Assembly (NCBI GenBank): GCA_958296235.1
Contig: OY282457.1
Location: 1,985,684-2,049,683 of the forward strand
Source: an uncultured Candidatus Binatia bacterium
Lineage (GTDB): Bacteria; Desulfobacterota; Binatia; Bin18
Direction of reading: 5' to 3'
DNA length: 64,000 bases
Shown here in pieces: positions 4,124-55,563 of the stretch. The position numbers and the translations under genes are program-made. Each line of letters begins with the position of its first letter. The stretch's first letter is position 1. The notes under the pieces were generated by a model that saw only the letters and a program-made list of their open reading frames with translations, was not told where the DNA came from and did no database searches.

Positions 4124-5116
4124 TTATTCCGCCAGCGCGCCGCCGCAGGAGCTGCCGGCACCGGCGGTACAGCCATAGCAATGGGCATCCAGACGGATGT
4201 CCCGGCCGATGAGCTGCCGGACCAGGCTGGCGGCTGAGTGTTCGCCCAGGCGCAGGGGAGTGCCGTTGCCCAGACGCAGATCGAGCATCTGGTTGAAATC
4301 GCAGTCGTACAGATAGCCATCCCAGGAGATGCTCACCAAGTGGCGACACATCAGGCTGTCAAGCGTGGCCGGATTAAAAGCCTGGGCCAATAGCTCCATA
4401 TATTCGGCCAGCTTGCCATCTCGCTCCAGGCTATGGGCAAAGCGGGCGATGGGCATATTCGTAATCGTCAAGAGGTTGTTAAACGTCAGCCCAAAGCGTT
4501 CGTCGAGTTCTCGTCTATAATCCGCCTCCAGGTTTTGCTGGGGCGGCGGCAGGTGAGCGCCAACCGGGTTATAGACAAGATTGAGGACCAGGTCTGAGCC
4601 TGCCTGCCCATAGCCGAGGGAGTTCAGTTGTCGGAGGGCGGCAATGGATTTCTCGTAGACACCGTGGCCACGTTGCGCCGAGACGTTCTCTTTCGAGTAG
4701 CAGGGCAGGCTGGCAAAAATTTCAACTTGGTGTGTGGCCAGAAACTCGGCCAAGTCTTCCTGACCGGGCTCAAACAGGACGGTCAAATTACAGCGGTCCA
4801 GCACATGCCGGCCGTCTTGGCGGTTTTGCTCAACCAGAAAACGAAAGGATGGATTCAGCTCCGGCGCGCCGCCGGTCAGATCAACCGTTCGCGCCGTGGC
4901 TGCGCGGATGAGATCAAGGGCCAGCGCGGCCGTCCGCGGCGCCATGATCTCGGTCCGTTGCGGACCGGCGTCCACATGACAGTGGAGACAGGCCTGGTTG
5001 CACAGCTTGCCCAGGTTGACCTGAACGGTCCCCAACTCGGCCCGTTTAAGGGGAAGGCCCTTCTCTTGGCCTACCCGCTCTGTAAAAGGCTGAAAAGATG
5101 GTTCAGCGGCGCGCAT
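4124..5116 (-). CDS. arsS: Arsenosugar-biosynthesis radical SAM protein ArsS
   Basis: CNQACLHCHV is a CxxxCxxC radical SAM motif. The C-terminal Cys cluster CYGCTAGAGSSCGGAL is typical of the ArsS family. It is adjacent to arsM. Confidence 0.7.
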   Translation of the reverse strand: MRAAEPSFQPFTERVGQEKGLPLKRAELGTVQVNLGKLCNQACLHCHVDAGPQRTEIMAPRTAALALDLIRAATARTVDLTGGAPELNPSFRFLVEQNRQDGRHVLDRCNLTVLFEPGQEDLAEFLATHQVEIFASLPCYSKENVSAQRGHGVYEKSIAALRQLNSLGYGQAGSDLVLNLVYNPVGAHLPPPQQNLEADYRRELDERFGLTFNNLLTITNMPIARFAHSLERDGKLAEYMELLAQAFNPATLDSLMCRHLVSISWDGYLYDCDFNQMLDLRLGNGTPLRLGEHSAASLVRQLIGRDIRLDAHCYGCTAGAGSSCGGALAE

Positions 5117-5137
5117 GCGGGGTATCCATTCCTTGGG

Positions 5138-6055
5138 CTAACAGCATTTACTTGGCGCGCAGCACGCCTGCGTGTCTGTGGACGCTTGATAGGCGAGCGC
5201 CTTAGCGCCGGGTTCCCCTTTATGGGCAACCAGGGTCATGGACCGAAAGGCGATACCTTCGACCGTTCGCCACGGCTGCTCGTCACGCCTCAGAACGGCT
5301 ATGCCGGAGAAACCGGCTTCTTCGAACGCTGCGATGAACTCTTTTTCCTGCATGGCCCCAGAGACGCAGCCACTCCATAATTCGGGGTCGGCCTTCAGGT
5401 GAGCCGGCACCGGTTCGTCGGCAACAATATCGGAGATTACCGTCCGCCCGTCCTGGCGCAGCACCCGAAAAATTTCACCAAACAGTTGCCGCTTGTCCGC
5501 GTCCTGGACCAGGTTGAGCACGCAGTTCGAGACGACAACGTCAACGCAACCGTCGGCAATCAGCGGTCGCTGCGTACGCTGTTCGGCCATGACCGCTTCA
5601 AAGGTTTGGAAATCTTCGAGCGAAGCCACCGGATGCTGGCGCAGGTAGGCATCCGCGACATTCAAATCGGTCCGCAAATCCTGGATTCTCCCCCGGTGAA
5701 ACTCGACGTTGTGATAGCCCAATTGTTCGCCAATGGACTGGCGGTATTTCTCGGCGACGTTGAGCATCTCCGGCGTCATGTCAACGCCGATAACCCGACC
5801 TTCGGCCCCAACGACCTGGGCGGCGATATAACAGATTTTGCCTGCGCCCGCGCCAAGATCAAGCACGGTTTCTCCCGGCTGGAGGTGCTGCGAGGGGTCT
5901 CCGCAGCCGTAATCGCGCTCAAGAATTTCTTCGGGGATGAGCGTGAGAAAGCGCGGGTTATAGTCTACCGGGCAGCACAACGCCGCTTCTTCCCGCTGCG
6001 CTCCCGCGGCATAACGCGCCTTGACCGCCTGCTCAATATCAAACACTGCTGTCAT
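5138..6055 (-). CDS. arsM: Arsenite S-adenosylmethionine methyltransferase
   Basis: SAM-MTase motif VLDLGAGAG, conserved N-terminal Cys pair (ALCCPVDY) and C-terminal Cys-rich tail (QACCAPSKCC) as in ArsM. Confidence 0.8.
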   Translation of the reverse strand: MTAVFDIEQAVKARYAAGAQREEAALCCPVDYNPRFLTLIPEEILERDYGCGDPSQHLQPGETVLDLGAGAGKICYIAAQVVGAEGRVIGVDMTPEMLNVAEKYRQSIGEQLGYHNVEFHRGRIQDLRTDLNVADAYLRQHPVASLEDFQTFEAVMAEQRTQRPLIADGCVDVVVSNCVLNLVQDADKRQLFGEIFRVLRQDGRTVISDIVADEPVPAHLKADPELWSGCVSGAMQEKEFIAAFEEAGFSGIAVLRRDEQPWRTVEGIAFRSMTLVAHKGEPGAKALAYQASTDTQACCAPSKCC

Positions 6056-6185
6056 CTCTTCTTCTCCTTCTGGACCACGCCTATTAGAACTGTGTCAGCA
6101 TACTAGCGTATCTTTTCATCAGTGTACTAGAGCCGTTTACGGATAGTGTCTCAGTTTGAATTTTCCCTCACCCGTTGCCGGCACC

Positions 6186-6272
6186 GCGCCCCCTCACCCC
6201 ACCCCTCTCCCTCCGGGGGAGAGGGGGTCTACTTCCCTCCCCCCTTGAGGGGGAGGGCCAGGGTGGGGGGTG
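6186..6272. repeat. GC-run hairpin repeat ('CCCTCTCCC..GGGAGAGGG' / 'CCTCCCCCTTGAGGGGGAGG' family)
   Basis: Perfect palindromes ccctctccctccgggggagaggg and cctcccccttgagggggagg. The second half is near-identical to 55491-55527, and a related pair lies at 41640-41765. Confidence 0.8.
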
Positions 6273-6412
6273 TTCCGCCGGCAGCGGGGCAGGAAGATGT
6301 GCAACTGAGACACGACCGGCCGGACCGCCCTTGCTCCTCCGGTAGGGCGACTCCCGCTCTCCTGGCGGGAAGTGCGTAAACGCGCCGCCTTCATGAGGAG
6401 CGCGGCCATCCT

Positions 6413-6450
6413 GGCCGCGATTCTTTGCGGGCTGGAAGCCCGCACTCCTT
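6413..6450. repeat. REP-like palindromic unit (gcgggctggaagcccgc), tandem 1.5 copies
   Basis: tttgcgggctggaagcccgcactcc followed by ttgtttgcgggctgg. It is the reverse complement of the tandem pair at 40561-40640. Confidence 0.6.
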
Positions 6451-6601
6451 GTTTGCGGGCTGGGGGGAGGGTCTGAGCTTCCGGCAGAAAAGAGTCGGGG
6501 GATTTCAAACTGATACACCACCCGTTTACGCTAGGTTGTAGCCCTGTCGTGACGCTCTTGTCACTCCGGCCCTGATCCGGCCTCCAGCGGTGGGGGACGG
6601 C

Positions 6602-6634
6602 GGGCCTGAATTCCGGCTTTCGCCGGAATGACGG
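6602..6634. repeat. 'GGAATGAC' hairpin repeat, variant copy C
   Basis: gggcctgaattccggctttcgccggaatgacgg has the same architecture as copies A and B (G-run, hairpin, ggaatgac) with compensatory stem changes. Confidence 0.6.
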
Positions 6635-6722
6635 AAAGTATACATTTTCTCATGGTCTAAGATGGTGGATTCAACCTCTCGATATTTCGAGAGGGACAGC
6701 GACCCATGCTGAGGAAGACTGC

Positions 6723-7958
6723 ATGCCAACAATTAAAGACGACGCCGGCTCGGAATCGGATACAGCGGCAGGCTTTCACCTCCGACCTCACTTCAAACGC
6801 TTCAACCAAAAAGATGATGTGTTTCGTCGTTCGTGGTGGGATGAACGCATTCGGACCCGGAAGAGCGAGTTATTCTACGAGACGTACAGAGAGCCGCTCA
6901 AAACCTGGCGCAAGGTTGATGGCTTTACCCAAAAAGATTATGCGCTCCGCAATGCCGCCTGGCATGTCAGCGACCTCTTCACTGAACTCAAACAAGACCA
7001 GGATCGTCGAGAAGGCTTTTCCGACGAGTTTACGTTGTACCGAGATGTGGCCGAAGAACAGATGGACCTTGGGACGCCGACTCAAGCCGCGGCTGAGATA
7101 AAACGGGTCGGGAAAGCCTTTGGCGCAGATCTAATTGGCATTGCCGAGTACGACGAACGCTGGATGTACGTGAATAAATTCAGCGATATGAGTAAACGCG
7201 AAAAGCCACAGGAAATTCCCGAGGGCCTGTCGTCTGTGATTGTGGTTGCTCAGGCGATGGACTACGACCTGATTCGGACCGTTCCGTCTGCCCTCAGCGG
7301 TGCGGCAACCGGTCTGGGATACTCGCACGACGCGCTCGTGGTCTTGTCGCTGGCCCAGTACATCCGCAACCTCGGCTATACGGCGATTGCGAGCATGAAT
7401 GATACCGCGCTCGCCATTCCGTATGCGATCAAGGCCGGCTTGGGCGAGTATGGGCGGCTTGGGCTGTTGATTACCAAAGAGTTCGGCCCCCGTGTCCGGC
7501 TCGGCAAGATATTTACCAATCTCCCGCTTGCGCTCGATACACCGATTCGGTTTGGGGTGAAGGAATTTTGCGATACGTGTCAGCGGTGTTCCGCTGGCTG
7601 TCCGGTAAGCGCCATTCCCTCGAACGCTCCGTCGGACGCAATCCATAATCAGTCCAACATCAAAGGTGTCGTAAAATGGACGGTCGATGGGGAAAAATGT
7701 TTCAGTTATTGGGCCGCCCAAAATAGCGACTGCTCTATTTGTATCCGGGTGTGTCCCTACAACAAGGACTTCTCCAAATGGTATACGCGGCTCGGACGCT
7801 GGCTGGCCGGCACGCGATTACGCAAGCTGATGTTGCAGCTTGACGTTGCCACAGGTTTTGGAAGTCGGATGGCATCGAAGCGGTGGTGGCAGGGGGAACG
7901 GGAAGCCTTGGTGGAGCGCATCAGGCAGCTATTGAACCGGGGGAAGGGGAAACGGTAA
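6723..7958 (+). CDS. Reductive dehalogenase / epoxyqueuosine-reductase superfamily protein (B12-type, two [4Fe-4S] motifs). No Tat signal, so it looks like a cytoplasmic orphan.
   Basis: FCDTCQRCSAGCP (CxxCxxCxxxCP) and C..x10..CSICIRVCP are the signature RdhA/QueG ferredoxin motifs. 411 aa without an RRxFLK leader. Confidence 0.6.
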   Translation: MPTIKDDAGSESDTAAGFHLRPHFKRFNQKDDVFRRSWWDERIRTRKSELFYETYREPLKTWRKVDGFTQKDYALRNAAWHVSDLFTELKQDQDRREGFSDEFTLYRDVAEEQMDLGTPTQAAAEIKRVGKAFGADLIGIAEYDERWMYVNKFSDMSKREKPQEIPEGLSSVIVVAQAMDYDLIRTVPSALSGAATGLGYSHDALVVLSLAQYIRNLGYTAIASMNDTALAIPYAIKAGLGEYGRLGLLITKEFGPRVRLGKIFTNLPLALDTPIRFGVKEFCDTCQRCSAGCPVSAIPSNAPSDAIHNQSNIKGVVKWTVDGEKCFSYWAAQNSDCSICIRVCPYNKDFSKWYTRLGRWLAGTRLRKLMLQLDVATGFGSRMASKRWWQGEREALVERIRQLLNRGKGKR

Positions 7959-7991
7959 GAGCCGCCTGAGGGGGGGCTTAAAAACCGTAGC

Positions 7992-8114
7992 ATCATTTTG
8001 TGCGATGCTGTCCGCTCTATTGCCAAAGAGCGCCTCACCCGTCGCTGGGGACGCGTCTCTCCGCCGACGCTGGCCGCGGTCGAGGATCGTCTGCGTATCC
8101 TCATAGGGCTATAG
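7992..8114 (+). pseudogene. C-terminal remnant of a MazF/PemK-family toxin gene (no start codon, in frame after the rdhA-like stop)
   Basis: The frame reads ..ILCDAVRSIAKERLTRRWGRVSPPTLAAVEDRLRILIGL*, matching the conserved MazF C-terminus (..RLGrls...V..aL...LgL). There is no N-terminal part and no initiator. Confidence 0.4.
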
Positions 8115-8124
8115 CCTGCGTGGG

Positions 8125-8290
8125 AGGAATGCAGCGCGATAAGATCGCTGAGCTAATGCGCCTCAGCCCGGAAAAGTCACCTCAGGCACGGCCCGCATAG
8201 CCCGTTCAACCGCCTCAGCCGGATACTCGTAGCGTTCGAGTTTTCCGGCGTGGTAGTCTGAATAAAAATTCTGCGGGAGCACGACCGCCC
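8125..8290 (-). pseudogene. Duplicated 3'-end fragment of trpB2 (~37 codons plus ~36 bp of 3' flank)
   Basis: 8125-8290 aligns at about 85% identity with 11645-11790. It encodes ..[30 protein letters not shown], against trpB2 ..[30 protein letters not shown]. Confidence 0.7.
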
Positions 8291-8519
8291 CCGGCTCCCC
8301 GTCCCGCCTTGGCGATGGTTCCGCCTCACACCGGTTCTGACGCGACAGCCGCCAAAAAACTCGTAAACTTCTCAGAGTTCCAACTGAATATACAAGTAGG
8401 AAGGGCTGCCCCATGCCGGCCCCTGGCTCCCAAAAAATACCCTGCTCCAAATTTCTTTTGAAAAATCCGTGAACTTTTCTGATCCCATTTAGTATCTACC
8501 TAATGAAAGGAGAGAGTAT

Positions 8520-9617
8520 ATGACTGATTGCACACATATCCACCACAGCCCCACCCTGCGGCGCCTGCTCGGCACCGCGGTAGCATTCCCCGACCCGACG
8601 CACCACCAGAGGTGGAGTAGCGGCGTGCTGCTTGGCCTCGCCGCCGGTAACGTGCTCGGGCTCCGCGGCGAGGGCGCGTGGTACGACGAGATCCCCGCCC
8701 GGTATCCGGGCGGCGTCATTGCGCCCGACCCCCAGGAAAAAGAGCGCCCGATGGACGACGACCTCGCCCAGGCCGTGGAGTTGGCCTTAGCCCTGCTCGC
8801 CAAGGGCGATGTCGTCCGGGCGTTCGCCCGGCACCTGGTACGCTGGCGGCGCAAGAACGGCCGCGGGATGGGCCGCACGACCCGAAGCGTCATCAATCTG
8901 CTGGAAGCCGGCACCTCGCCGTATGAGGCCGCCCGCGTGTGCTACGAGCGGAACCCAATTGCCCCCAACGGTGGCCTCATGCGCTGCGCCCCGGTCGCCG
9001 TCGCCCACCAGCACGCCCCGGAGCGGTTGATCCATGACTCGGCCGCCACCTGTGCCGTCACCCATTACGCCCCCACCTGCCAGTGGTCCTGCATCATCCT
9101 CAATGCCGTCATCGCCCTGCTGCTCCAGGACCCTGACCCGGATGTGCCCGCCGTGCTGGCCGCAGCCACAGCCGACGGCGCCCCGGACCTGCACGCTGCG
9201 GCCGCCGCAGACGGCATTCCAACGGACGTGTTCGCCCGTCTCGCCGCCGGCCTGCCCCCCAGCGCTGACACGTCTTGGTTATGTCGCGACCAGCATCTGA
9301 TTGGCCACACCCTGTTGACGCTACAGGTGGGCTTGTGGGCGGCGGTGACAACGCTGAATTTCGAGGACGCGCTGGTGCAGGTCGTCAGGGCGGGTGGGGA
9401 TACGGACACCAACGCCGCGGTGGCGGGGGCCGTGCTGGGTGCCCGCTACGGGGCGACGGCCATCCCCGACCGCTGGCTGGAGTGTATCCCCGATCTGGAG
9501 CGGATCGACCTGCTGGCCACCCTCTTCGCGACGTTTAACCAGATCATTTGGAGAAAGCGGTTTGAGAGGGTAGTGGCCCTTGACACGGAGGACCAGGCAA
9601 AACCCTCCAGAGGGTAG
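8520..9617 (+). CDS. ADP-ribosylglycohydrolase (ARH/DraG family)
   Basis: Strong RBS aaaggagag. GGDTDTNAAVAGAVLGARYG is the ARH C-terminal metal-site motif. The N-terminal GLAAGNVLG and MDDDL are variants of the GDALG / TDDT motifs. Confidence 0.8.
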   Translation: MTDCTHIHHSPTLRRLLGTAVAFPDPTHHQRWSSGVLLGLAAGNVLGLRGEGAWYDEIPARYPGGVIAPDPQEKERPMDDDLAQAVELALALLAKGDVVRAFARHLVRWRRKNGRGMGRTTRSVINLLEAGTSPYEAARVCYERNPIAPNGGLMRCAPVAVAHQHAPERLIHDSAATCAVTHYAPTCQWSCIILNAVIALLLQDPDPDVPAVLAAATADGAPDLHAAAAADGIPTDVFARLAAGLPPSADTSWLCRDQHLIGHTLLTLQVGLWAAVTTLNFEDALVQVVRAGGDTDTNAAVAGAVLGARYGATAIPDRWLECIPDLERIDLLATLFATFNQIIWRKRFERVVALDTEDQAKPSRG

Positions 9618-9754
9618 CCCGTCGAGCAAGAGGGCCGTGAACGTTTTGACGAGAGAGAAAGGAGCGAGAACGATGGCGACCGTATTAATTGAGCAGGGTG
9701 GCGGTCCAGACGGTCGGCACCTCATGGAGAGCCAAGAATACGAAGGAGGCAGCA

Positions 9755-10282
9755 ATGGATGAGTCCCGATTCCGAGTCAGCTACTACTATAGCGAAAAAG
9801 AAGGAACCATCGCTATCGACCTTGACGACCTCCACAAGATGCTGAACACCGGTCACGGCTACCACAAGATCATCAAATCCCGGCCTTCGCGTTTCTGCGA
9901 TGTCGTCGGCCGCAGCAGGCTCAATGACGACGGAGTGCTCGTATTCGTAATGGAAGCCGGAGCACTTGAGATAGAACCGATGAACTTTGACCCCGTTCCG
10001 CGCCTGGTGGACATAGGAGAAATAGGACGAGAACATCCCGTCCCCATGCCTAATGTCTCCAAGCCGGGAATCGCCACCGAGGAGCACCCCCCCATCCTGC
10101 CCTGTAAATGGGAAACCATCACCACCTCAGATGGGGTCAAGAAGGATGAGGAGACCGTCACCATTGCTCTCGACGACCTCCAACAGATGTTGAACACCGG
10201 CTACGGCTATCACGAGATTGCCAAATCTCGGGCGGCCGGCTCTGTCTCTATCGTCCGCCGCCGGACTGCACCGTCCTGTTGA
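9755..10282 (+). CDS. Hypothetical protein with an internal tandem repeat
   Basis: RBS aggagg then ATG 9755. Two ~30-aa repeats: TIAIDLDDLHKMLNTGHGYHKIIKSR and TVTIALDDLQQMLNTGYGYHEIAKSR. No family recognised. Confidence 0.45.
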   Translation: MDESRFRVSYYYSEKEGTIAIDLDDLHKMLNTGHGYHKIIKSRPSRFCDVVGRSRLNDDGVLVFVMEAGALEIEPMNFDPVPRLVDIGEIGREHPVPMPNVSKPGIATEEHPPILPCKWETITTSDGVKKDEETVTIALDDLQQMLNTGYGYHEIAKSRAAGSVSIVRRRTAPSC

Positions 10283-10382
10283 CGCACAGGACGGACAACC
10301 GATATGGAAGCTCCCTCATGCCCCGGGCCAAGAGGGTTTTCATCATTCCGGGGGAGAGAGCAGGGGAATAAAGGAGTCTACT

Positions 10383-11384
10383 ATGACGTGGTTTGAAGAA
10401 CTGACCGGCTTTTCAGAAGAGTCCCCCGAGCAGGTACGGGCGAATCTCAGCGTGGACGGTCAGGTGTTGCGATCTCATGTCACCGGGAAAACGCTGGTGT
10501 GTGGCGAACTGGAAACGCCGTCCTTGGCCGAGTTGCGCCACCGGGTCCAAGCGAGCGGGTATGAGACTGGAGCCATGACGATCCGCGAGGTCGTTGCCAA
10601 CGTCCAGAAGTTGCACACGAACGCGGCGAATACAGGCGCGTTGTTTCAGGTCGCGTCCCAGTTCAATCTGCTTGAAATGACGGGTCCAGGGGTCACCCCT
10701 GAGGAGGGGGTTGGCATTTATGAGCATGATCTCACTCAGGGACCGGCGTGTGCCATCGCGGCTGGGGCGGGCACGATCTATCGCAACTACTTTGCCCCCG
10801 TGAACGGACAGACCGGGCAATCCGCCACCAACCAAATCGATTGCCTGGCGGATATCGGCGCGGCCCTGGGCAATACCGAGAATCGTCTGTGGGACATGCG
10901 CAACGGGTATGCGTGGCCTTCATATGAGGGGTTAGTCGAGATTGGGGAGTGCCTGCGCGCGGCGAGTAAGCCGGAGCTGGATGAGTTGCGCCAACTGCTC
11001 CGCATCGGTCTTCAGTGGCACACGCAAGTGACGCTCGATGACTGCACCCATACGGTCTCCCAAGCCTGTTGTTCTGCCTTGCCGGTCGGCTATCTGGATC
11101 ATTCTCATGAACTGTGGACCGAGTTCGCCCGGCTCGTTCTGGAGGCGACCTACGAGGCCACGCTCTGCGCGGCTCTCGTGAATGCGCGCCAAACCGGCAA
11201 CAAAACGGTATTTCTGACCCTGGTCGGTGGCGGAGTGTTTGAGAACGACCCCGATTGGATTCTCAGCGGCCTCCAACGCGCTTTGGACCTCTACCAGGAT
11301 GCTGCTCTTGACGTCGCCATTGTTAGCTATGGGTCGTCAAATCCAGATATCCAGCATCTTGTGAGCCACACAGATTACGATTAG
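10383..11384 (+). CDS. Hypothetical protein, possibly a divergent macrodomain / bacterial PARG-like (DUF2263-like) ADP-ribose hydrolase
   Basis: RBS aaggag then ATG 10383. FLTLVGGGVFENDP resembles the GCGVFGNDP motif I recall from bacterial PARG/DUF2263 macrodomains. An upstream NAAN..FQVASQFN..GPG..PEE segment loosely resembles the diphosphate-binding loop. The assignment is tentative. Confidence 0.4.
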   Translation: MTWFEELTGFSEESPEQVRANLSVDGQVLRSHVTGKTLVCGELETPSLAELRHRVQASGYETGAMTIREVVANVQKLHTNAANTGALFQVASQFNLLEMTGPGVTPEEGVGIYEHDLTQGPACAIAAGAGTIYRNYFAPVNGQTGQSATNQIDCLADIGAALGNTENRLWDMRNGYAWPSYEGLVEIGECLRAASKPELDELRQLLRIGLQWHTQVTLDDCTHTVSQACCSALPVGYLDHSHELWTEFARLVLEATYEATLCAALVNARQTGNKTVFLTLVGGGVFENDPDWILSGLQRALDLYQDAALDVAIVSYGSSNPDIQHLVSHTDYD

Positions 11385-11680
11385 CTGCAACATAACGAAC
11401 CGTGATTTACCGGCAGTTGTGACAGATGCAGCAATACCGCTGGCAGCGGGGTCGGGCGGTATCTTATTCAGGAGAGAGCGCCAATAAGTTGTCGGCCAGC
11501 GTTTCGATCCGCTCGCGCTCAGGAATGCAGTCCAGCCAGTCGCGCGGGCCGTTGATAAAGCCGGTCACACTCTCCACGGTGGTCTGCGACCGCTCAATAT
11601 TGAACAAGTGGCTGTGTTGGACAGGATGAGCATCTCGGCGTTCGGAATGCGGCGCGATAAGACCACCGAGTTAATGCACG

Positions 11681-13063
11681 TCACCCCGGAAAAGTCACCT
11701 CAGGCACGGTCCGCATAGCTCGTTCAATCGCCTCAGCCGGATACTCGTAGCGTTCGAGTTTTCCGGCGTGGTAGTCGGCATAGGCGCTCATATCAAAATG
11801 ACCGTGGCCGCTCAGATTAAACGCAATGACTTTCTTTTCGCCGCTTTCCCGGCACTGCACAGCCTCATTCATCGCCGCGCAGATTGCGTGGTTGGACTCG
11901 GGCGCCGGCACTATCCCTTCGGCCCTGGCAAACGCCACACCGGCCTCAAAGGTCGCAAGCTGATCAAACGCGGTGGCCTCAATATGACCGCTGTGCGCCA
12001 GCGCACTCACGTGTGGAGCCATGCCATGATAGCGCAGCCCGCCGGCATGGATGGTCGCCGGCATAAACGAATGACCCAGCGTGTACATCTGACAAATCGG
12101 CGCAACACCGCCAGCGTCGGCCCAATCCCAGGTGAAAGAACCTTTGGTTAAGGTCGGACAGGCGGCCGGCTCAACTGCGATAATACGCGTGTTCTTGCCC
12201 TGCTTGAGTTTCTCTCGGACGAACGGAAAGGCAAAACCGGCAAAATTCGATCCGCCCCCGGCGCAGCCGATGACAATGTCCGGGTACTCGCCGGCCATCT
12301 CCATTTGGCGTAATGCCTCTTCACCAATAATGGTTTGATGCAGCAACACATGCGGGAGAAAAGAGCCCAGACTGTACTTTTTCGTCCCGCCGGACTGTTG
12401 GGCGGCTTCAATCCCTTCTGAGACGGCCAGCCCCAATGAGCCGGGATGGTCCGGGTCTTCAGCCAGAAACCGCCGTCCCACTTCGGTTCGGTCGGACGGA
12501 CTGGCAAACACCTCAGCGCCATAGGTCGCAATCACGTGGCGACGATAGGGCTTTTGCTGAAACGAGATACGGACCATATACACTTCGCAGCCCAGCCCGA
12601 ACATATTGCATGCCATAGCCAGGGCCGTGCCCCACTGGCCCGCGCCCGTTTCTGTCGTCAGCGTCTTGATACCTTCTTGCTTGGCATAAAACGCCTGGGC
12701 CACAGCCGTGTTCGGCTTATGTGAACCAACCGGACTGACACCTTCATATTTGTAATAGATGTGGGCTGGGGTCTGGAGCGCCCGCTCCAGCCGGCGGGCC
12801 CGAAAAAAGGGGGTTGGTCGCCAGAGTGTATAGATATCGCGGACCGGCTCCGGGATTTCAATATAGCGCTCTTGGCTGACATCCTGAGCGAGGAGGGCTG
12901 TTGGCGTAAAGGAAGCCAGGTACTCGGGTGTGACCGGCTGTTTGGTTTCCGGGTGGAGCGGCGGCATCAGGGGTGCGGGCATGTCGGCATTGATGTTATA
13001 CCACGCCGTGGGCATCTGGTGTTCTTCAAGCAGATATTTGGTCTGGTCACTCATGCGGGTCAT
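11681..13063 (-). CDS. trpB2: TrpB2-type tryptophan synthase beta-like PLP enzyme
   Basis: The 460-aa N-terminus [20 protein letters not shown] and the PLP lysine context are TrpB2-specific; the protein is full length. Confidence 0.85.
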
Positions 13064-40560: not shown

Positions 40561-40640
40561 CCCCCTGGGAGCGCGGGCTTCCAGCCCGCAAGAAAGAGCC
40601 ACCCTGGGAGCGCGGGCTTCCAGCCCGCAAGAAAGGATGA
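40561..40640. repeat. Tandem pair of REP-like palindromic units (ccctgggagcgcgggcttccagcccgcaagaaag x2), possible bidirectional terminator
   Basis: Two ~37-bp units, each with the hairpin gcgggc-ttcca-gcccgc. It is the reverse complement of the element at 6413-6450. Confidence 0.7.
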
Positions 40641-41639: not shown

Positions 41640-41765
41640 GTTCAGTTTCACCTCTCCCTCCCCTGCTGCCGGCTCAACGCCCCCCCACCCTGACCCTCCC
41701 CTCAGAGGGGGGAGGGAATAGCTGCTCCCTCTCCCCTGGAGGGAGAGGGTTGGGGAGAGGGGGCA
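41640..41765. repeat. GC-run hairpin repeats in the CRISPR leader / csb2 3' flank
   Basis: ccctcccctcagaggggggaggg and ccctctcccctggagggagaggg are the same family as 6186-6272 and 55487-55527. Confidence 0.7.
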
Positions 41766-55444: not shown

Positions 55445-55563
55445 CGCGCAACGAGCAGATGGGGTAAGCGGGGGCCTCACGTTATTCCCTCCCCCCTTGA
55501 GGGGGAGGGCTAGGGTGGGGGGTCCTACGCGCAACGAGCAGACGGGGTGAGCGGGGGCCTCAC
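55445..55563. repeat. 1.45x tandem duplication carrying a GC-run hairpin repeat
   Basis: acgcgcaacgagcagatggggtaagcgggggcctcacg ... cccttgagggggagggctagggtggggggtcct ... acgcgcaacgagcagacggggtgagcgggggcctcacg. Confidence 0.7.

Follow-up and report, generated by a model that had tools for sequence, protein, structure and literature searches.

A recurrent set of genes for an ADP-ribosylglycohydrolase, a two-repeat protein and a predicted PARG-like macrodomain protein in Binatia, a candidate ADP-ribose eraser cassette

The three genes and their products

We analysed a stretch of 64,000 nucleotides (the window) from an uncultured Candidatus Binatia bacterium (contig OY282457.1 of GenBank assembly GCA_958296235.1, positions 1,985,684 to 2,049,683 of the forward strand) with a focus on three neighbouring genes that an original prediction, made from the letters of the window, had described as a module pairing an ADP-ribosylglycohydrolase with a PARG/macro-like protein and a tandem-repeat protein. 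The three open reading frames (ORFs) are present as described, all on the + strand, and encode an ADP-ribosylglycohydrolase of the ARH/ARG fold (8520-9617, 365 aa), a 175-aa two-repeat protein (9755-10282) and a 333-aa PARG-like macrodomain protein from a large unnamed family (10383-11384). Each ATG has a Shine-Dalgarno-like motif 7-8 nt on its 5' side (AAAGGAG at 8520, GGAGG at 9755 and AAGGAG at 10383), the gaps between the genes are 137 nt and 100 nt and a promoter and terminator scan, otherwise uninformative, returned no terminator-like site on the + strand between them; co-transcription of the three is plausible. The GC content of the genes (0.59-0.63) is unremarkable in comparison with the rest of the window. 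Selection on all three is purifying, with pairwise dN/dS of 0.22-0.39 against relatives (0.24-0.35 for the ARH gene and 0.22-0.39 for the 175-aa gene), and nucleotide synteny with the best Binatia relatives stands at 88-90%.

The ARH protein covers the PF03747 model from end to end (positions 1-287 of 287), with E 1.5e-54 and 186 bits where the cutoff is 26.2. Its best relatives are Tri1, the T. thermophilus ADP-ribosylglycohydrolase, DraG and ARH3 in the PDB and Tri1 and DraG in NCBIfam, and because its scores lie far under the equivalog cutoffs of the latter two (80.1 against 490 bits for Tri1, NF041672, and 80.0 against 337 bits for DraG, TIGR02662) we regard it as a member of the superfamily without a named subfamily. 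When the protein is aligned with DraG, Tri1 and the T. thermophilus enzyme, the N-terminal Glu (in GNVLGLRGE), the Asp pair, GNG..MR, TH and GGDTDT are all seen to be kept. Two motifs are substituted, GNVLG...E standing for GDALG...E and MDDDL (DDDL) for TDDT, and the protein may still bind metal. Together the PF03747 match and these alignments confirm the earlier description of an ARH with GGDTDT and variant N-terminal motifs.

For the 333-aa protein a macro/PARG-like fold, with a three-layer alpha/beta/alpha architecture, is predicted with high confidence, and the top structural match in the comparison is DrPARG, the PARG of D. radiodurans. The structure check thus recognised the kind of fold that had been anticipated, and the locus appears to hold two mechanistically different ADP-ribose-removing folds side by side, an ARH (PF03747) and a PARG-like macrodomain, as had been proposed. 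Searches by sequence returned no match to this protein in Pfam (the Macro family included), NCBIfam (E <= 1), PADLOC or PHROGs, and none in the PDB with either a single sequence or a profile; a Csx1 match in the PDB sequence search (E 0.065) was dismissed as chance. All source annotations read 'hypothetical' or 'uncharacterized' and the family has no Pfam model, solved structure or characterised member.

In order to relate the protein to DrPARG (L088:28873-29730, annotated as 'TIGR02452 family protein') the family profile was compared with it using hhalign, which aligned LTLVGGGVFENDP with LVLGAWGCGVFRNDP and covered only the C-terminal diphosphate loop (E 0.05). Within this loop G282 is invariant and G283, G284, F286 and N288 are conserved in at least 90% of members. 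The loop aligns to G224-F228 of DrPARG, where G224, G226, V227 and F228 contact the pyrophosphate of ADP-ribose (PMC6445106). Since hhalign covered the C-terminal loop only, the correspondence of the catalytic loops is manual and tentative; it places S92 and N95 after the central strand opposite S95 and N98 of DrPARG, in agreement with the predicted secondary structure.

The catalytic part of the protein departs from that of bacterial-type PARGs (TIGR02452/DUF2263, including T. curvata PARG and D. radiodurans DRB0099). A regular expression for the PARG signature GGG-X6-8-QEE, which carries the catalytic Glu (E112 in DrPARG, E115 in TcPARG), matched 0 of 270 macro-family members, and the PF10021 and TIGR02452 hidden Markov models (HMMs) did not match the 333-aa protein. 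The signature is replaced in the strand-helix loop by a different conserved set consisting of an invariant E98, P106-E107 (Glu in 81%) and a near-invariant D116-x-T118-Q119-G120-P121. By manual alignment, made without superposition, the equivalent of QEE would be either P106-E107-x or Q119-G-P, and the residue following E107 is acidic in about half of the members. Identity to the bacterial-type PARGs is about 12% and the family has in addition some 85 aa at the N-terminus that are highly conserved. Canonical PARG membership was rejected on the grounds that the catalytic signature is absent and the HMMs are silent, so that of the proposed macro/PARG-like assignment the fold is right and the PARG membership fails.

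The third product, the 175-aa protein, contains two internal repeats at 9806-9883 (TIAIDLDDLHKMLNTGHGYHKIIKSR) and 10154-10231 (TVTIALDDLQQMLNTGYGYHEIAKSR), both on the + strand (repeat family D2), which are 77% identical at the DNA level and conserved across the protein's family. Pfam, NCBIfam, PADLOC and PHROGs hold no known family for it, and matches to Slx4 (E 0.014), DolA (E 0.01) and phrog_4458 (7e-4, over 14 residues only) were set aside as noise. The description of this protein as a family-less one with two real repeats accordingly stands. The structure prediction that had been envisaged for it gave an unreliable AlphaFold2 model (pLDDT 37) with no usable fold.

Recurrence of the gene set and its phosphatase partner

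Co-localisation of the three genes elsewhere would distinguish a module from a chance adjacency, and we found that it does recur, to an extent beyond chance. The distance from a 175-family to a 333-family gene is 0-2 genes in all seven loci read, and in 8 of 9 Binatia loci an ARH gene is also near, 0-3 genes away, with three different orders and orientations among the loci. The 175-aa family is small, at about 31 clusters, at least 15 of which are apparently on the same contig as a close (Binatia-type) relative of the window's macro protein. L127 lies at a different site and has the gene order of the window (ARH, 175-aa domain, here with phosphatase, macro) at 83-90% nucleotide identity, followed by a type I restriction-modification (R-M) system; its ARH gene is collinear with that of the window at 83%. 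Among the loci syntenic with the window, L126 carries a 111-aa gene, the 175-aa domain with phosphatase, macro, a 174-aa gene, an ankyrin gene (-), ARH (-) and a trpB-like gene, while L128 carries the 175-aa domain with phosphatase, macro and GmrSD (-) with no ARH. A third, L001, carries MazEF, two 110-aa paralogues, the 175-aa gene, a phosphatase without its P-loop, macro, ARH (-) and insertion sequence fragments, and the pair L008/L009 carries macro and ARH (-), with L009 retaining these two and no 175-aa domain. At another different site, L002/L003 carry macro, ARH and a 175-like gene.

The relatives point to a fourth component. In the 351-409-aa proteins P0296-P0299 the 175-aa domain forms the N-terminal half and a DSP-type cysteine phosphatase (DSP-PTPase; PF22784/PF22785/PF22741) the C-terminal half, in which the HCWGGVGRTG loop is intact. 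The DSP-PTPases are part of the rhodanese-phosphatase superfamily; a literature search on the term 'DSP-PTPase' found nothing. In L001 the phosphatase is a separate ORF immediately 3' of the 175-aa gene and has lost its CX5R loop. The window lacks this coding sequence. At the junction between the 175-aa and macro genes (10283-10382, + strand) about 480 bp are deleted, the alignment jumping from 10599 to 11079 in L001 and from 8516 to 9131 in L126, and a tblastn search with the PTPase found no phosphatase in the whole 64-kb window. We therefore consider the window copy to be a reduced derivative that has lost the phosphatase of its relatives. In P0301 the first repeat of the 175-aa family is fused to an ARH. 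The 175-aa domain would have an accessory role, presumably in targeting or partner binding.

The macro family extends well beyond Binatia. An exhaustive HMMER search (E <= 1e-3) returned 3,742 clusters at 50% identity. The species-genome scan gave at least 599 matching stretches, which come from Binatia, Cyanobacteria, Acidobacteriota, Chloroflexota, Planctomycetota, Proteobacteria and others, the best 80 at 56-85% identity. Homologues were also found on 37 viral contigs from IMG/VR (L089-L125), mostly giant-virus metagenome-assembled genomes (MAGs). Those from giant viruses include Yasminevirus, Bodo saltans virus, Klosneuvirus and GVMAG contigs (BFVD A0A5K0UBT0, A0A2H4UVR4 and A0A2H4UUF0), and one homologue in this set is fused to a RING finger. 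EF-hand or FYVE domains on long cellular homologues suggest that there are eukaryotic members too. ORF clustering within 5 kb on either side of the macro gene in 87 loci gave no conserved neighbour beyond generic SDR/hydrolase genes. A recurrent minority partner of the family is again the DSP-type cysteine phosphatase (PF22784 PTP-SAK, PF22785 Tc-R-P, PF22741 PTP-NADK), which is fused to the macrodomain in 8 of 40 long macro representatives and is the immediate neighbour of the macro gene in L001, L010, L032, L091 and L092; L074 has another copy at a distance of about 3 kb.

One of these loci, L010, comes from a Latescibacterota MAG and contains a Binatia-like DSP-PTPase with a macro gene, followed by a gene for a PLD-type restriction-endonuclease-like protein. 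Between the window (10383-11384) and L010 (5412-7002) the macro genes have a dS of only about 0.5 and a protein identity of 77%, which is far too low a divergence for vertical descent between phyla if the binning is correct, and the similarity indicates a probable recent inter-phylum transfer or else a binning error. With this low dS between phyla and the giant-virus homologues the macro gene looks horizontally mobile. In contrast to the macro and phosphatase genes the ARH gene is restricted in its linkage: a locally built ARH HMM found it, among 127 loci, only in those of Binatia, and a general ARH-macro operon was accordingly rejected. On the basis of gene content across the loci, for example L128 and L010 which are both without ARH, the stable core is phosphatase plus macro, with the ARH and the 175-aa domain as Binatia additions.

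In several relatives the module adjoins defence genes, namely a complete NsnABC, GmrSD-like genes, a type I R-M system, MazEF and the PLD-type restriction endonuclease, of which NsnABC, the GmrSD-like genes and type I R-M match PADLOC models. NsnABC stands back to back with the macro-ARH-175 module in L002 (10738-13964, -) and L003 (3385-6599, -) with PADLOC E values of 1e-103 to 1e-114.

A possible role as an ADP-ribose eraser cassette

The absence of any obvious ADP-ribosyltransferase (ART) had been remarked upon in the original prediction and it holds in a wider sample. No ART of any Pfam type is found in the neighbourhood in the window, and ART, PARP, sirtuin and DarT Pfam families are missing from the annotated genes within 8-10 kb on either side in L001-L003 and L126-L128, the rest of the genome not having been searched. 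The module shares with DarT-DarG, Tre1-Tri1 and DraT-DraG the use of macrodomain or ARH hydrolases, which in those systems reverse ADP-ribosylation, but differs from them in having no transferase gene, in combining two erasers and in showing no sign of toxin-antitoxin (TA) logic. An adjacent ART toxin of the DarTG or Tre1-Tri1 type was found in or beside the module in none of the loci read, and a DarTG- or Tri1-like TA reading was rejected because there is no writer. The comparison with such modules that had been drawn at the outset therefore fails, and the gene set fits instead the class of ART-less erasers predicted by Iyer et al. (2022).

In that study (Viruses 14:1977, PMC9503650 section 3.8) ART-less systems consisting of an ARG and a protein from the rhodanese-phosphatase superfamily, with an optional Macro, are predicted to be a host counter to viral ARTs. 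The predicted ARG-centric systems are tightly coupled to a phosphatase in about 55%, usually one from the rhodanese-phosphatase superfamily, and have a Nudix- or WYL-HTH repressor in about 42%, plus a peptide-binding chaperone. These counter-ADP-ribosylation systems, themselves a prediction, are the closest known class, and we take the module to be real and probably a variant of that class. The likeness lies in an ARG/ARH hydrolase without a coupled ART or sirtuin, in coupling to a metal-independent cysteine phosphatase (here in the relatives L126-L128), in the occasional extra Macro domain and nuclease or restriction-type neighbours, and in a conserved core around which parts are accreted or lost between close genomes. 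Unlike those systems the window copy has no phosphatase (and that of L001 is decayed), the core is not ARG plus phosphatase but phosphatase plus PARG-like macro, which L128 and L010 keep although they have no ARH, the 175-aa domain is not a described accessory family and lacks the conserved Cys reported for ARPP, and Binatia are not among the lineages listed. The module also differs from MacroD/Poa1p-type macrodomains, which act on soluble O-acetyl-ADP-ribose or ADP-ribose-1''-phosphate, in that the macro protein has no Pfam Macro match, is larger (333 aa) and is closer to PARG, and in that the predicted phosphatase activity resides in a separate DSP-PTPase outside the macrodomain.

We favour, at a probability of roughly 45%, a writer-less ADP-ribose eraser cassette that is protective against foreign ARTs. 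As there is no ADP-ribose-adding enzyme nearby the cassette would most likely undo ADP-ribosylation carried out by phages or rival bacteria, stripping ADP-ribose adducts, or products derived from ADP-ribose, made by ARTs that are not encoded beside it. The two hydrolases would split the linkages between them, the predicted metal-dependent ARH taking N- or O-glycosidic linkages of the protein type and the PARG-like macrodomain taking adducts linked to the ribose 2'-OH or to phosphate, as cleaved by bacterial PARGs. A precedent is provided by orphan bacterial PARGs, which reverse RNA ADP-ribosylation at the 2'-OH and at phosphate ends and protect against the RhsP2 toxin (Lu et al. 2025, PMC11833690). 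The ancestral Binatia module would have had the 175-aa domain at the N-terminus of a DSP-type cysteine phosphatase directly 5' of the macro gene, with the phosphatase presumably taking a terminal phosphate off the substrate or the released product and the 175-aa domain possibly targeting or tethering it; in the window the phosphatase would then have been deleted, leaving ARH, 175-aa domain and macro.

A number of observations weigh against a protective cassette. PADLOC-DB v2 gave no significant match for the ARH, macro or 175-aa proteins, nor for P0296, and the PARG catalytic signature is, as described above, missing from the macro family. Outside Binatia the macro gene is mostly solitary and found in ordinary contexts, for example in Nostoc, 80 species loci sharing no conserved neighbour, and the macro protein is 60-70% identical across phyla; these two traits would suit a housekeeping enzyme too. 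The ARH linkage is phylogenetically narrow, being confined to one class and mostly to metagenome assemblies. The annotated neighbours, unlike those of the systems of Iyer et al., include neither a Nudix or WYL regulator nor a chaperone of the vWA, SseB or TY type. Finally the window copy, with no phosphatase and several remnants around it, may be decaying.

The strongest competitor, which we nevertheless consider rather unlikely, is housekeeping or repair of ADP-ribose derivatives or of nucleic-acid ends capped with ADP-ribose (ADPr), with ADPr-1''-phosphate, 2'-phospho-ADPr, O-acyl-ADPr and ADP-ribosylated 5'/3' phosphate ends as its substrates and the ARH as a Binatia-specific add-on. It draws on the analogy with D. 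radiodurans, whose DrPARG shares an operon with a ligase and with a phosphatase/kinase that processes ends (PMC11833690). The DrPARG gene has an RNA ligase gene on one side and an 'AAA family ATPase' gene on the other, the latter being described as the HD-phosphatase/polynucleotide kinase DRB0098 (PMC11833690), whereas no ligase or kinase partner was seen here. The phosphatase Pfam families are named after an RNA-repair 'Swiss Army Knife' protein and an NAD-kinase fusion, and the 3,742 clusters of the macro family, its identity between phyla and its usual solitary position among metabolic genes would all suit such an enzyme. Set against this are a sporadic distribution (at least 599 matching stretches in the species-genome scan, corresponding to at least about 600 of 185,579 species), signs of horizontal transfer in the dS of about 0.5 between phyla, the defence genes adjoining the set in Binatia and in L010, and the speed with which the gene set is gained, lost and rearranged between close relatives.

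A bolder extension of the protective reading, which we regard as doubtful in its entirety, would make the 333-aa clade a group of PARG-like macro enzymes with a catalytic loop of their own (N95-x-x-E98 ... D116-x-T-Q-G-P) that work in tandem with the DSP phosphatase on a phosphate-containing ADP-ribose adduct and serve as mobile, broad-spectrum immunity against foreign ARTs, to which Binatia would have added the ARH and the two-repeat targeting domain. The adducts could then be ADPr-capped nucleic-acid ends, phosphorylated ADPr signals or toxic metabolites, and the clade would span bacteria of many phyla, giant viruses and probably eukaryotes. This would amount to a two-step de-ADP-ribosylation chemistry that is not yet described.

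Less probable still is that the three genes are the decaying remainder of a once-complete module with no joint function, so that their adjacency is a matter of history. The deletion of the phosphatase from the window would agree with this, as would the remnants of a second ARH and of a 111-aa gene, the MazF fragment and the duplicated trpB-like 3' end that accompany the three genes, the loss of the CX5R loop in the L001 phosphatase and the splitting of the L002 ARH into two ORFs. However, none of the three ORFs is broken and each has a ribosome-binding site, dN/dS against relatives is 0.22-0.35 with other phosphatase-less loci included, an identical 175-aa protein is found in another assembly (P0121) and the catalytic-type motifs of both hydrolases are kept. 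A complete reversible system or TA module in which the 175-aa protein or another small ORF is a new ART or toxin is very improbable: eraser genes are often antitoxins (DarG, Tri1, DraG) and a catalytic role is conceivable for a protein with no recognisable family or confident fold, but the 175-aa domain is fused to the phosphatase rather than paired with a separate toxin, L009 keeps macro and ARH without it, its invariant residues lack H-Y-E or R-S-E-like spacing, it has no ART, PADLOC or PHROGs match and the repeats flanking the module leave no space for another gene.

What is known of bacterial ADP-ribosylation biology mostly concerns pairs of a writer and an eraser. Protection by erasers only was predicted in 2022 and shown for single orphan PARGs in 2025, and the present locus with its fuller relatives offers a compact example of a putative multi-component cassette. 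We consider the most interesting element to be the large unnamed macro family with its own loop and recurrent cysteine phosphatase and not the adjacency of three genes; the phosphatase partner points to a class of substrate that current hydrolase assays may miss. If the proposed activity is true the family would supply a new hydrolase for the ADP-ribosylation toolkit and the cassette a new category of defence system. For experiments L127, with ARH, 175-PTPase and macro beside a type I R-M system, offers a fuller and better starting point than the reduced copy in the window.

Remnants and rearrangement around the module

The whole module is bracketed by a 139-nt direct repeat (repeat family D1, 91% identical), of which the left copy (8126-8264) is a duplicated 3' end of a trpB-like gene and the right copy (11644-11782) lies within the intact trpB-like (PALP) gene at 11681-13063(-). 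An ORF over the left copy (8163-8450, -) ends like the intact gene. Between the repeats there is no further ORF and no room for another gene. The repeat has the look of a scar left by recombination or integration. Neither an integrase nor a tRNA is found near it, and as nothing was returned by Rfam and tRNA scans over 7.5-12 kb we see no tRNA-type integration site.

Several gene remnants lie in or beside the module. A 77-nt stretch at 11463-11539 (- strand) is what remains of the 3' end of another ARH gene, which had the opposite orientation and stood at the ARH position of the syntenic relatives. Its identity with the ARH 3' ends in L008, L009 and L126 is 91-92%, tblastn with P0301 matched it and it forms an inverted repeat with 9473-9518 (+). 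Together with the resident ARH (+) of the L127 type this suggests that the original ARH was lost and a different copy gained. We rejected the idea that the ARH acquired its orientation by a simple inversion, because the ARH is flipped while the orientation of the flanking repeat is kept. The C-terminal 51 aa of a MazF-type toxin are encoded at 7959-8111 (+), matched at 90% identity by tblastn with residues 135-185 of the L001 MazF, and the MazEF-like pair is intact in L001 (7697-8285).

A 30-aa ORF with a good ribosome-binding site had been predicted ahead of the 175-aa gene. This ORF of 29 codons (ATG 9673, stop 9762, +) is probably not a gene but what is left of the 5' part of a 111-aa gene, which relatives have in intact form, and we rejected it as a genuine micro-gene. 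The window at 9651-9694 equals L126 at 7525-7568 at 95%, and the 111-aa gene of L126 starts at 7547; the first residues of the ORF are MATVLIEQ where the two L001 paralogues have MATIVMDQ, and beyond these it diverges and runs into the start of the 175-aa gene. With the 139-nt repeat, the gene remnants and a gene order that differs between close relatives the locus looks laterally shuffled, and to that extent the proposal of lateral acquisition is upheld.

Small family-less genes are found in or beside the module in relatives, including tandem paralogues of 110-112 aa and genes of 174 aa and 98 aa, and may be components of it. They are located at 9011-9349 and 9550-9882 in L001, at 7547-7882, 10368-10892 and 13962-14258 in L126 and at 12236-12532 in L128; the 111-, 174- and 98-aa ORFs have no Pfam or PADLOC match. 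On the 5' side of the module in the window, at 4124-6055(-) and 6723-7958(+), are radical-SAM/DUF3641, methyltransferase and reductive-dehalogenase-like Fe-S genes, which are unrelated to it and kept in all syntenic relatives, and the variable island lies between these conserved upstream genes and the trpB-like gene. Among the upstream genes there is in addition an intergenic insertion of about 550 bp (6131-6682) that is absent in L001 and contains nested inverted repeats (6134-6167/6497-6530 and 6146-6193/6266-6313). Parts of this insertion are found again in the window at 41642-41764, 55485-55523, 1610-1706 and 40568-40630 with 75-97% identity, from which we take the insertion to be a dispersed REP- or MITE-like repeat.

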